Shown here: piece after piece, positions 2,345 through 5,614 of the stretch
How positions within the stretch are numbered: position 1 is the stretch's first letter
Layout: the number at the start of each line of letters is the position of its first letter
Source of the DNA: Chrysomallon squamiferum
Taxonomy: Eukaryota > Animalia > Mollusca
Length of the DNA: 64,000 bases
Direction of reading: 5' to 3'
Assembly: GCA_012295275.1 (NCBI GenBank)
Contig: CM022671.1
Location: forward strand, 4,712,001 to 4,776,000
The notes under the pieces: model-generated
Seen by the model: only the letters and a program-made list of their open reading frames with translations
The model's database searches: none
Told to the model about the DNA's origin: nothing
Translations under genes and position numbers: made by a program

Positions 2345-3950
2345 ATGTTGTTGTTTCTTATTCTTCTCTTCTTTGCCGCTGATGTCCACGCTGACATCAC
2401 GAATGCCGTTGTGCATGCTGGAAGCTGCGTGTGCGTGCATGGTTTTGGAGTGCATGCGCGGAATCAACGTAAGTTTTTACTTGCAAAATGTTGAGTTGTT
2501 TATCGTAAACTGTACGGTAAAATGTCGTCTGTTTTTCATTTGTTATTTTTCTTGTTTTGCGTTGAATTTATTTGTTAGTCAGTTAATTGTTTTGTGTGTT
2601 TGTATGTCTTTCTGTTTTTGTCTGTTTGTCGTTATTGTTGTTGTTGTTGTTGTTGTTGTTGCTGCTGTTGTTGTTGTTATATATTTATTTAAATTTGACA
2701 GCTGGAGTTATCGGAACTCACGTAAGGGCGACGCTAAACACCGGAACTTGTTTTACACTTCATGGGGGAATTATTTCTAGAGACGGTTACAAGTGGTTCG
2801 AAATTAATTACAGTGGACAGGTAATTTCGTCTGTTCCTGTGTCTCTCTTTATGTCTACATATGTCTGTTTCTGTACACACATTTTATTATTGTTGTTGTT
2901 ATTACAGTCACTATTATTATTATTATTATTATTATTATTATTATTATTATTATTATTATTACAAATAATAATAATGATGATGATGATGATGAAGATGAAT
3001 ATATTAATAAATAATATTAATAATAATAATCCCGTATAAATCCAAAAACTCACGAACATGTCTAACAAGTATCATAAATCAGGTTTGAAAACCCATATCA
3101 AACTTTCCACACTAACATATCTAGTTTTAAACCCATTTAAACTTACACTTTAAAAAAAAAAATACCAACAAAAAAACCCAACAACATCCCTGCTCCTTTA
3201 TTACAAATAAATTCTTAATGTGTCCTTGTCAGTCATCCCTTCTTTAAATAGCAGTTTCTAACATACCAATATAGCCCAGCCTTTCCAAAACTCTTCCTCA
3301 CTCACTGAAGAGTTTCGTATTTCCTGTATTCTCTTCTAACCTGTAATTTCCTCCTCGACACCGAGAGAACCCTCCCTTTGGGCGCAATCACCTCCAGCAG
3401 ATGACAGTTGTTTCCGCAGTAAGACAACCTTTTCGACACCGATAACAGCCGCTTGCTGCAAGGGTAACGCTAATGAAACCAGCCATTTTGATGTCGGGCA
3501 GGTCACGTGATAACTTGCGATAATTGACCGTTTTGGTTTGATAGGGCAGTGTTGTCTTGTTCTCGTTTTGTCTGTTCGATGGCGAAAGAGGTTCGCTATC
3601 GATTCCTGGCTTGAGACACAAATTGAGTTACTGCCTGTTTTATTTATTTATTTATTTATTTATTTATTTATTTATTTATTTATTTATTGTTATTATTGTT
3701 ATTACTGTTAAAGCTCTTATATGATTATTATTATTCCTATTATTATTATTACTACTACTACTGCTACTGCTACTACCACTACTACTATTACTATTATTAT
3801 TATTATTATTATTATTATTTATTATTGTTGTTGTTGTTGTTGTTGTTGTTGTTGTTGTTGTTGTTGTAATTGTTATTGCTATTATTATTATATTTCAGCG
3901 ACTGTGGGTTGCTGGGAACTATCTTACTACAGCTGCATCAACGAGTTGTT
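2345..3950 (+). other. Signal peptide + SH3b-like domain-encoding exons 1-3 of the peptidase gene
   Basis: VHARNQPG...VRATLNTG...[22 protein letters not shown] follows the bacterial SH3 pattern (vnvRsgPg...v..l..G...dGy.Wy.i.y.G..gWv...yl). Matched by eye; no HMM run. Confidence 0.7.
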
Positions 3951-5614
3951 GTAAGAACAAATATTTCTATTCAATGTTTGAAATAAAAATTTTGGACTAG
4001 TATAATTCAAGAGAATGTGAATATTTTTTAGTGTGTGTGTGTGTGAGAGAGAGAGAGAGAGAGAGAGAGAGAGAGAGAGAGAGAGAGAGAGAGAGAGAGA
4101 GAGAGAGAGAGAGAGAGAGAGAGAGAGAGAGAGAGAGAGAGAGAGAGAGAGAGAGAGACAGACAGACAGACAGACAGACAGAGAGAGATACAGACAGACA
4201 GACAGAGAGAGAGAGAGACAGACAGATAGACAAGACAGACAGACATCCTTTTCTTCTTCTTCTGATTATTATTATTACTAGATAACGTTATCCTTATTAT
4301 TATTATTATTATTATTATTATTATTATTATTATTAATGTTGTTGTAGTTGTTGTTGTTGTTTCAAACAGCAGGAGGAAGTCTTCACACCGGCGGCAGCAC
4401 CTGTCACGACGCTCAGGCTCAGAGGTGGGCTTGTGACTTGTTGCAGTGGCACCAGTCGGGCCGCATAGCAATCTGGAACAAACATCCTTCCGGTCACGTG
4501 GATCAGGCCTTCTCGCTCCAGAACATCAAAGACGCATGCGCCGGCCGTGCTGTAGCCAGATCGAGGTTAGATATAGCGTTTACAAAATATTTTTCAAATT
4601 ATGAAGGATTTCTTATCTGATTAAATAAGCCAGTTAGCCCTATATAGATAGATAGATAGATAGATAGATAGATAGATAGATAGATAGATAGGTAGACAGA
4701 TAGACAGATAGATAGATAGATAGACAGATAGACAGACAGACAGACAGACAGATAGACAGATAGATAGATAGATAGATAGATAGATAGATAGATAGATAGA
4801 TAGATAGATAGATAGATAGATACTATTTTTTTACTCGCCACAATGAAATCAATCCTTTCCGAAATCGTCATTATATAATTTCACATTTTAAGGAAGACCC
4901 TGATGTGCGTATTTTCTAATTTTAGCTACTCCTGTACAATTAGCGGGAAAACGTGCTCGGCACCAGGAGGTCACGTGTGTCTTGACCACACCCTTCTGCA
5001 TTATTTGCATACACTGGGATCCACTGGTTACATACATGTACGTATGTTTATCATCGTCATCATCAACATCATCATCACCATCATGAATAGTAGTTGAGTT
5101 GGCAATGTTATTTTATTCTGTGTATTCTGTGTTTACCATCGTCATCATCATTGTTGTTGGTGCTGAGATCATTGTTGTCATAGTAACTGTTTTTGAACAT
5201 GTTTTTGTTAAAATCCTCATCATCGACGTCATCAGCTTATCGTTACCATTAATATTGTTTTATTTATTTATTTATTTGTTTGTTTATTTGTTTTTTGTTT
5301 ATGTTTTATTTATTTTATTTATTTGTTTCCTGATTGTCGTTATTTGTTTAATTTATTTGTTTGTTTATTTGTTTATTTATCTATTTATTTGTTTATTTAT
5401 TTATTTATTTATTTGTTTATTTGTTTATTTGTTTATTTTCTAGATTAACGAACTCGCTGGGGCGTGTCACACGTGTCACTCCAGACATTACCGAGGTCAG
5501 GCTGTTGACCTTCACAACGACGCAAGGTCACACGAGTACCTGACCAAATGCACGAGTATGGGGGGCTGGGGACAGAACGAGGGAAACCACATTCACTGTC
5601 AGTTTGGTTACTAA
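2345..5614 (+). CDS. Secreted SH3b-like + zinc peptidase M15/LAS (D-Ala-D-Ala peptidase / Hedgehog-N fold) protein, 257 aa, 6 exons; putative peptidoglycan hydrolase
   Basis: Exons 2345-2468, 2702-2820, 3899-3950, 4370-4565, 4926-5037 and 5444-5614 all have GT..AG boundaries and compatible phases (1,0,1,2,0), summing to 774 nt with no internal stop. Translation: [257 protein letters not shown]. It has a hydrophobic signal peptide and the SxHxxGxAxD...HxH motif. The gene model is strong; the function is inferred. Confidence 0.85.
4031..4245. repeat. Compound (GT)n(GA)n(GACA)n microsatellite in intron 3 of the peptidase gene
   Basis: Directly visible. Confidence 0.95.
4643..4822. repeat. (AGAT)n/(AGAC)n microsatellite in intron 4 of the peptidase gene
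   Basis: Directly visible. Confidence 0.95.
5444..5614 (+). other. Catalytic exon carrying the LAS zinc-binding motifs
   Basis: [10 protein letters not shown] (H-x6-D) and EGNHIH (HxH) lie in one 57-codon terminal exon, below the ORF-track length cutoff. Confidence 0.8.

Follow-up and report, generated by a model that had tools for sequence, protein, structure and literature searches.

Animals are known to attack bacterial cell walls mostly with lysozymes and PGRP amidases. The present analysis concerns a six-exon gene in a 64,000-nucleotide stretch of Chrysomallon squamiferum DNA (GCA_012295275.1, contig CM022671.1, positions 4,712,001 to 4,776,000 of the forward strand; hereafter the window), the product of which is predicted to be a secreted zinc peptidase with an N-terminal SH3b domain. 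A preliminary description, made from the sequence alone, had proposed it as a horizontally acquired wall hydrolase of bacterial style.

Rusticalin-like proteins are secreted animal proteins with a Peptidase_MD-clan domain for which a bacterial or phage origin has been proposed (Daugavet et al., 2019, PMC6339383; Daugavet et al., 2020, PMC7379824). The excerpts of these papers used here place them in tunicates, lancelets, coral and Trichoplax and not in molluscs. As described there, they resemble the snail protein in length (∼250-270 amino acids), in secretion, in a small Cys-rich N-terminal module and in a C-terminal domain of the Hedgehog/DD-peptidase fold, their activity likewise being putative. 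Cys-rich repeats of similar pattern are carried by paralogues within the snail-gene family (12 records). The snail-gene family, in contrast, is known from ambulacrarians as well as molluscs; its member in the window carries SH3b instead of two Cys-rich repeats. Rusticalins match the Ply500/A500 L-Ala-D-Glu peptidase (2VO9, E 1.5e-16) according to the excerpt of PMC6339383; 2vo9 was not among the 28 sequences matched by the profile of the snail-gene family at E ≤ 10 and gave a structural Z-score of 4.7, below ShhN and 1lbu, rusticalins themselves being compared by description only. On these partial accounts rusticalin is a precedent from the same clan and another subfamily.

The Streptomyces zinc D-Ala-D-Ala carboxypeptidase 1lbu (MEROPS M15A, Pfam Peptidase_M15_3) is similar in fold (Z 7.0-7.1), in the H-x6-D and H-x-H motifs, in a titratable residue five positions before the last His, in secretion and in the presence of a wall-binding module. 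It differs in that identity is 17-19%, the snail family lies below the Pfam cut-off without an aligned Arg138 segment, and the snail protein has a longer N-terminal subdomain (HxSG..D.A..N..D, RSxY, PGG) with SH3b replacing PG_binding_1. The Hedgehog N-domain, with bacterial Hh and Hedgling, provided the best solved match and shares the H-x5-H-Y-x-G-x-A-V-D and HxHC motifs, whereas identity is ∼20% and the snail protein has no Hint domain. For bacterial Hh proteins PMC6027127 gives >50% identity to ShhN, so the snail-gene family is another family.

The arrangement of signal peptide, Cys-stabilised SH3b, linker and wall-enzyme domain is known from other invertebrates. The available text of PMC11083476 and PMC3308963 reports SH3b on the gut i-type lysozyme of the annelids Enchytraeus and Eisenia and on a PGRP of Mytilus, respectively, and the mature chain of the worm lysozyme also begins DIT. 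These proteins and the phage lysozymes are glycosidases or amidases, whereas the snail protein would be a peptidase. Transferred lysozymes are described in molluscs in the portions of PMC5303276 and PMC11576321 used here, and the phage lysozymes of bivalves underwent intron gain and domain fusion after transfer (PMC5303276, same portion).

Gene model and predicted domains

The six predicted exons listed in Table 1, when joined, gave a 774-nt frame of 257 amino acids with 14 Cys. The five introns (233, 1078, 419, 360 and 406 nt; phases 1, 0, 1, 2 and 0) were all GT-AG, and GC content was 0.52 in the exons compared to ∼0.32-0.34 in the surrounding DNA, the window being AT-rich animal DNA that is rich in microsatellites. 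Open frames were obtained from 32 of the donor/acceptor combinations tried around the junctions. The combination of the preliminary description matched Gigantopelta aegis LOC121367551 (P0001) at 75.6% identity over 242 columns with one gap (E 1.5e-133), which chance splicing cannot explain. The same protein was the one recovered from five candidates in a search with exon 4 only, and was matched by all six exons in tblastn, exon 3 weakly (E 0.01). In gene-call fragments from other samples the match began right after the Gln at the intron 5 position (P0008, P0051, P0063, P0064 and P0074), ended at intron 4 (P0073, P0096 and P0097) or ended at the intron 5 donor (P0059). The junction of exons 3 and 4, located in the low-complexity linker, is the least certain. 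The exon structure, frame and Cys count first proposed were upheld, and these sequence comparisons confirmed the six-exon gene as real. They also point to a gastropod host, probably one near Gigantopelta.

Table 1. Positions in the window of the exons and of a putative polyadenylation signal.
Feature	Position	Strand	Content
Exon 1	2345..2468	+	Start codon; hydrophobic putative signal peptide (∼residues 1-16); start of SH3b
Exon 2	2702..2820	+	SH3b core; tblastn 67% to P0001; SH3_3 matches of relatives; fold matches
Exon 3	3899..3950	+	Final SH3b strand and beginning of linker; domain-separating phase-1 intron downstream
Exon 4	4370..4565	+	Gly/Ser/Thr linker and first half of peptidase domain (H137, D143, D153, R162, S163); 74% to P0001; conservation counts
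Exon 5	4926..5037	+	Y165, PGG motif and central helix of peptidase domain
Exon 6	5444..5614	+	Predicted zinc site (H210, H216-x6-D223, E247, H250-x-H252) and stop; aligned to ShhN and a close 1lbu relative
AATAAA	6096..6101	+	Sole copy between the stop and 6700; possible polyadenylation signal (putative)

One copy of the gene was found by tblastn within the window. Residence in the host genome was indicated by the five introns, the mollusc relatives and the intron-split alpha-L-fucosidase genes of the same window; contamination was ruled out by the introns, by the relatives and by a genomic run in which 26 of 29 bins were covered. A minor contig of the genomic run had three exon 1 differences (2443, 2449 and 2455), all silent third-codon changes. 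Two versions of 2413-2527 were present in that run at depths of 25.8 and 13.6, with six differing sites, of which three, all silent, lie in exon 1 and the others in intron 1, and may represent an allele, a second individual or a close paralogue. The GC-rich segment of intron 2 (∼3281-3520) was considered as an alternative exon and rejected as unneeded, no homologue matching there.

Relatives were used as stand-ins for the spliced protein in the fold work, both structure models being of relatives (P0001 and P0012). The N-terminus of the window protein was hydrophobic, with a hydropathy maximum of 3.2 at residue 1 against 1.4 elsewhere, consistent with the signal peptide first proposed, and the protein is predicted to be secreted. 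The AlphaFold model of P0001 (predicted local distance difference test, pLDDT, 74) comprised a beta-barrel at ∼27-95 and an alpha/beta domain at ∼111-259. The barrel matched the SH3b structure 9ovi with Z 8.3 (root-mean-square deviation, rmsd, 1.9; 64 aligned), and comparison in Atlas gave a feature score of 0.95 to SH3_3 clusters with template-modelling (TM) scores of 0.73-0.81. Pfam SH3_3 was found on four of seven relatives (best E 2.8e-4) and three relatives are named 'SH3b domain-containing' in UniRef; Pfam gave no hit, SH3_3 included, on P0001 itself. As modelled, the N-terminal domain is an SH3b domain, as had been proposed. The 14 records matched by a hidden Markov model of mollusc SH3b were exclusively of mollusc type, with no match among the bacterial proteins and the open reading frames (ORFs) of loci that were examined, and a phase-1 intron separates SH3b from the peptidase domain. 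The two domains were likely joined inside animals; the earlier suggestion that they were acquired as one unit was not borne out, since no examined bacterial relative carries SH3b.

The zinc motif, H-x6-D plus H-x-H as defined in the section of PMC6027127 used here, was present in the C-terminal domain as a ten-residue motif with H216 (at 5486) and D223 (at 5507) and as HIH with H250 (at 5588) and H252 (at 5594). The P0001 model matched ShhN with Z 7.6 (rmsd 3.0, 98 aligned) and 1lbu with Z 7.1 (rmsd 2.9, 100 aligned), ShhN, Hh and 1lbu occupying rows 4-6 of the ranking. When a domain-only model of P0012 (66 sequences, pLDDT 89.5) was compared with 48,161 chains, ShhN (7.6), Hh and 1lbu (7.0) ranked top with Z 7.0-7.6, followed by VldE, VanX (5.0), MepA (4.8), Ply500 (4.7), LysB4 and DacB among unrelated rows. 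The family profile matched ShhN (E 1.4e-5) and 1lbu (E 0.0023), and hhalign of this profile to a near-orthologue of 1lbu gave 94% probability (E 1.3e-7). On these models the C-terminal domain is of the Hedgehog/DD-peptidase (LAS, Peptidase_MD clan) fold with intact H-x6-D and HxH. In the printed alignment H216, D223, E247, H250 and H252 corresponded to H154, D161, H192, H195 and H197 of 1lbu; the position of E247 is a His in 1lbu and in most bacterial members.

No named family claimed the domain. Pfam returned nothing above cut-off for five single exons, and NCBIfam nothing for the peptidase domain of ten members. The PF08291 cut-off of 23.2 bits was not reached, the window exons and P0001 giving no hit and the best relative (P0029) 22.6 bits. 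HH_signal gave E 0.095 on one of seven relatives, and the frame ends at 5614, five codons past HxH, with no Hint domain. In BFVD one row reached E ≤ 0.001, and M15A rows were numerous but weak. By these profile searches the peptidase domain is a member of an unnamed family below all Pfam and NCBIfam cut-offs tried. The zinc peptidase of LAS type named in the preliminary description was recovered by profile and by model, and its M15 assignment was retained for fold and motifs and withdrawn for a named M15 subfamily, no Pfam M15 model matching at cut-off and the M15A Arg being unaligned.

Family members and origin of the peptidase domain

A profile of seven C-terminal domains was searched against 1.84 billion proteins, giving 781 matches at E ≤ 0.001 (347 at 1e-10), of which the best 150 were examined. 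Thirty chosen among these comprised 13 molluscs (gastropods and bivalves), two sea stars, one acorn worm, one Telonema subtilis (a protist, known from a transcriptome), one Actinoplanes and 12 without an organism. SH3b-bearing relatives were present in limpets, Biomphalaria, Dreissena and Mercenaria, with shared intron positions. Family members also occur in non-symbiotic limpets, pond snails, oysters and sea stars, and a special link to symbiont control, as first suggested, was not sustained. Full-text literature searches, with most subscription journals outside their scope, found no description of the family. Searches with six locus ids returned nothing; supplements (rows of PMC7379824, e.g. 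Lottia V4AC49 'domain not found'; proteomics) may list members.

Bacterial genomes were scanned with six bacterial-type query sequences and 54 of 91 pattern matches were confirmed, spread over ten phylum-level groups, with Actinomycetota, Chloroflexota, Verrucomicrobiota, Bacillota, Pseudomonadota and Patescibacteria lineages among them. Identity of the window protein to the best bacterial members in a small local search was 36-40% over ∼130 amino acids (E ∼1e-21). The best-scoring named bacterial match, Actinoplanes P0028 (E 3.3e-28, rank 22 of the best 150 of 781), was 39.5% identical over 129 amino acids. The likeness to actinobacterial proteins suggested in the preliminary description was thereby recovered, and its bacterial link held in the form of close bacterial relatives with wall-related partner domains. 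With the animal profile, none of 17 candidates from bacterial genomes and one of 60 from viral contigs proved to be a match, the one being a short and distant M15-like ORF; the bacterial profile gave 0 of 32 in viral contigs, plus one weak Microviridae match. With the viral-contig scans nearly empty, a phage donor is not indicated. Microviridae genomes H1-H15 encode short unannotated proteins related to the M15-like ORF (L001).

Conservation was counted in 46 eukaryote-type and 164 other rows, near-duplicates included, the others being mostly unnamed and taken as bacterial by character. The zinc residues were nearly invariant in both sets: H216 was conserved in 46 and 163 rows, D223 in 45 and 164, H252 in 40 and 158 and H250 in 32 and 150, with H210 in 44 and 163 and R162 in 40 and 155. 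P0139, P0125, P0147, P0189, P0099 and P0153 (Telonema subtilis and eukaryote-like sequences) have Trp or Asp for the first His of HxH, several of them with Cys-rich repeats.

In a FastTree phylogeny of 149 rows, 37 of 38 Cys-rich rows fell on one branch (support 98). An IQ-TREE phylogeny of 94 rows recovered a 24-row mollusc-type group at 99, with the bacterial separation at only 39. For the 60-row trees ten Cys columns were removed and 34 of the 94 rows were left out for long branches or redundancy; the bootstrap had not converged (0.958). The careful 60-row tree placed 19 animal-type rows on one branch at 98/94 and separated all 22 eukaryote-type rows from 38 bacterial rows at 89/73, whereas in the quick 60-row tree a bacterial row fell within the animal group. 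Five outgroup rows did not root the trees, two of them being wrong-frame translations and the others long branches. No bacterial sister to the animal branch was supported in these trees and nesting in bacteria was not seen, so the nested position expected from the preliminary description was not obtained. Forcing the animals together with the six best-hit rows, a set that included three named Actinomycetota, cost 14 log-likelihood units (approximately unbiased (AU) test p 0.022; group chosen after seeing the trees). A single old origin of the family in animals is well supported by these trees.

Since the substrate is made by bacteria and the family is more widely spread among them, a bacterial source of the peptidase domain, and an old one, is likely. 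We lean towards a history of a single early acquisition of the domain from bacteria, no later than the mollusc-echinoderm split, after which animals would have shuffled the targeting modules (SH3b, Cys-rich repeats, VWA). The family could instead be of ancient eukaryotic descent, passed on from an ancestor that fed on bacteria and lost many times, without any transfer into animals, which we hold to be appreciably less probable. The Telonema subtilis transcriptome member and the unnamed Cys-rich members would fit such a history, as would the split of 22 eukaryote-type from 38 bacterial rows, but that branch was unstarred and unstable (39 in the 94-row tree; broken in the 149-row and quick trees), named eukaryotes were patchy among the best 150 of 781 matches (30 looked up), and the protist record may reflect a separate transfer or derive from prey. 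That the gene came by recent, lineage-specific transfer from an actinobacterium, for instance in connection with the vent symbiosis, is very improbable: the score of Actinoplanes P0028 is set against the SH3b-bearing limpet, Biomphalaria, Dreissena and Mercenaria relatives with their shared introns, the sea star and acorn worm members, the grouping of the 19 animal-type rows and the weak rejection of joining animals to the best-hit rows, by which a 'recent' transfer is largely refuted.

Proposed function and alternatives

The protein is predicted, with a probability of about 0.7, to be a secreted two-domain zinc peptidase that likely binds and cuts bacterial peptidoglycan, for digestion or defence. 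SH3b would bind the peptidoglycan, zinc would be held by H216, D223 and H252, and water would be activated by H250 or E247, with H210 helping to stabilise the intermediate and the 14 Cys forming disulfides for extracellular life. A peptide bond in the stem or cross-bridge would be cut, and the snail would be helped to digest or kill bacteria.

This reading is favoured by the wall-related partner domains of the bacterial members. Of 52 hand-picked bacterial-type relatives, 18 carried a wall-binding or wall-enzyme domain, PG_binding_1 in 13 (one below cut-off) and otherwise SLT, SLT_3 (below cut-off), Amidase_2, Amidase_3, Rv2525c-like or YkuD_2. Among 16 named bacterial loci, two had PG_binding_1 and three GH46; overall the bacterial partners were PG_binding_1, amidases, SLT, YkuD, GH46, lectin, fn3 and pilin domains. 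Other animal-type members had Cys-rich repeats or VWA domains in place of SH3b. No Arg aligned before the first motif, where M15A has its GFRS segment with Arg138, which we take to be the substrate-binding residue; the invariant R162 elsewhere might replace it. An endopeptidase is favoured over a D-Ala-D-Ala carboxypeptidase because this segment has no aligned counterpart, and the short, more Hedgehog-like E-x-A-G-x-x-H segment in its place argues mildly against a classical D-Ala-D-Ala carboxypeptidase.

Several results weigh against the proposed enzyme, in addition to the missing bacterial sister branch. Z-scores of 7-8 are middling by the structure tool's own note, Foldseek against the PDB gave nothing at E ≤ 0.001, and the best solved match, Hedgehog, is a signalling ligand. 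The structural evidence comes from models of relatives; the sequence comparisons with ShhN and 1lbu and the hhalign result nevertheless agree with the middling structural scores. At least one of H216, D223, H250 and H252 was missing from 17 of the 46 eukaryote-type rows (two through truncation), and 34 of the 52 scanned bacterial-type relatives had no wall-related domain. Three RNA runs at 2300-2900 and four runs at 5420-5760 gave no coverage of the locus, which is not evidence of silence; the RNA run search returned small shares only, probably derived from microsatellites. To our knowledge no member of the family, bacterial or animal, has a known activity.

Two other roles were weighed against the peptidoglycan endopeptidase. 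The protein could act on peptidoglycan without lysis, as a stem-trimming carboxypeptidase or as a metal-dependent binder or sensor tuning the immune response to bacteria. Among characterised enzymes the nearest, 1lbu, is a DD-carboxypeptidase, one JGI relative (P0167) is labelled as such, R162 could take over carboxylate binding and zinc ligands are lost in several animal paralogues; the unaligned Arg138 segment, the retention of all ligands by the window gene and the fusion of bacterial members to lytic domains make this role unlikely. Less likely again is a Hedgehog-like ligand, or a peptidase of host substrates such as matrix or mucus, with the wall-enzyme look as a relic. Among solved structures, Hedgehog N-domains match best in both sequence and fold, and VWA-fused members with lost ligands recall Hedgling, but the bacterial relatives are far closer (36-40% over ∼130 amino acids) than Hedgehog (∼50 profile positions, E 1e-5), a Hint domain is lacking and a bacterial-type SH3b is retained.

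On the sequence evidence the gene is real and resident, and it encodes a probably catalytic LAS peptidase of an unnamed family, its kind, animal wall enzymes of bacterial type, being already known. A bolder proposal, which we regard as doubtful, is an undescribed animal family of peptidoglycan endopeptidases that predates the mollusc-echinoderm split, was retargeted by swapping of SH3b, Cys-rich and VWA modules and is a catalytically intact cousin of the Hedgehog N-domain. If true, a widespread intact zinc peptidase family would add a third wall-attack chemistry in molluscs and echinoderms, and its substrate would point to what the zinc site of Hedgehog once cut, the likeness making the family a practical model for the activity of that site, long under debate. 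Members in oysters and in the schistosome vector Biomphalaria are currently labelled 'uncharacterized', and for the bacterial members, too, no family model exists, so that a single assay would give several hundred proteins an annotation.

Neighbouring genes and domain fusions in other members

Two tandem intron-split alpha-L-fucosidase (PF01120) genes were located at 47867-52468 and from 53741-54112 onward (+). GC-rich exon-like stretches of other genes, with no Pfam match above cut-off, lie at ∼12850-14640 (-) and 44091-44426 (-), the latter without a PDB match.

In P0019, P0021 and P0163 of the mollusc clade, one to four VWA domains were fused to a peptidase domain that has lost its HxH ligands. 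The fusion parallels Hedgling (Hedge plus VWA, with an incomplete motif) in reverse domain order.

Among bacteria, T4SS_pilin was fused to the domain in P0042, P0045, P0052, P0113, P0168, P0171-P0177, L005 (a Saccharibacteria genome) and L038, some with SLT, which suggests that tiny, host-attached bacteria bear a wall hydrolase on their pili. Herpetosiphon preys on bacteria, and the domain was carried by Herpetosiphonaceae and related Chloroflexia (L007, L027, L028, L031, L033, L034, L037, L040, L051, L053 and L054), in L007, on plasmid pHAU01, behind two PG_binding_1 domains. GH46 was fused to the peptidase domain in L008, L016 and L043, from Mesorhizobium, another alphaproteobacterium and a verrucomicrobium.

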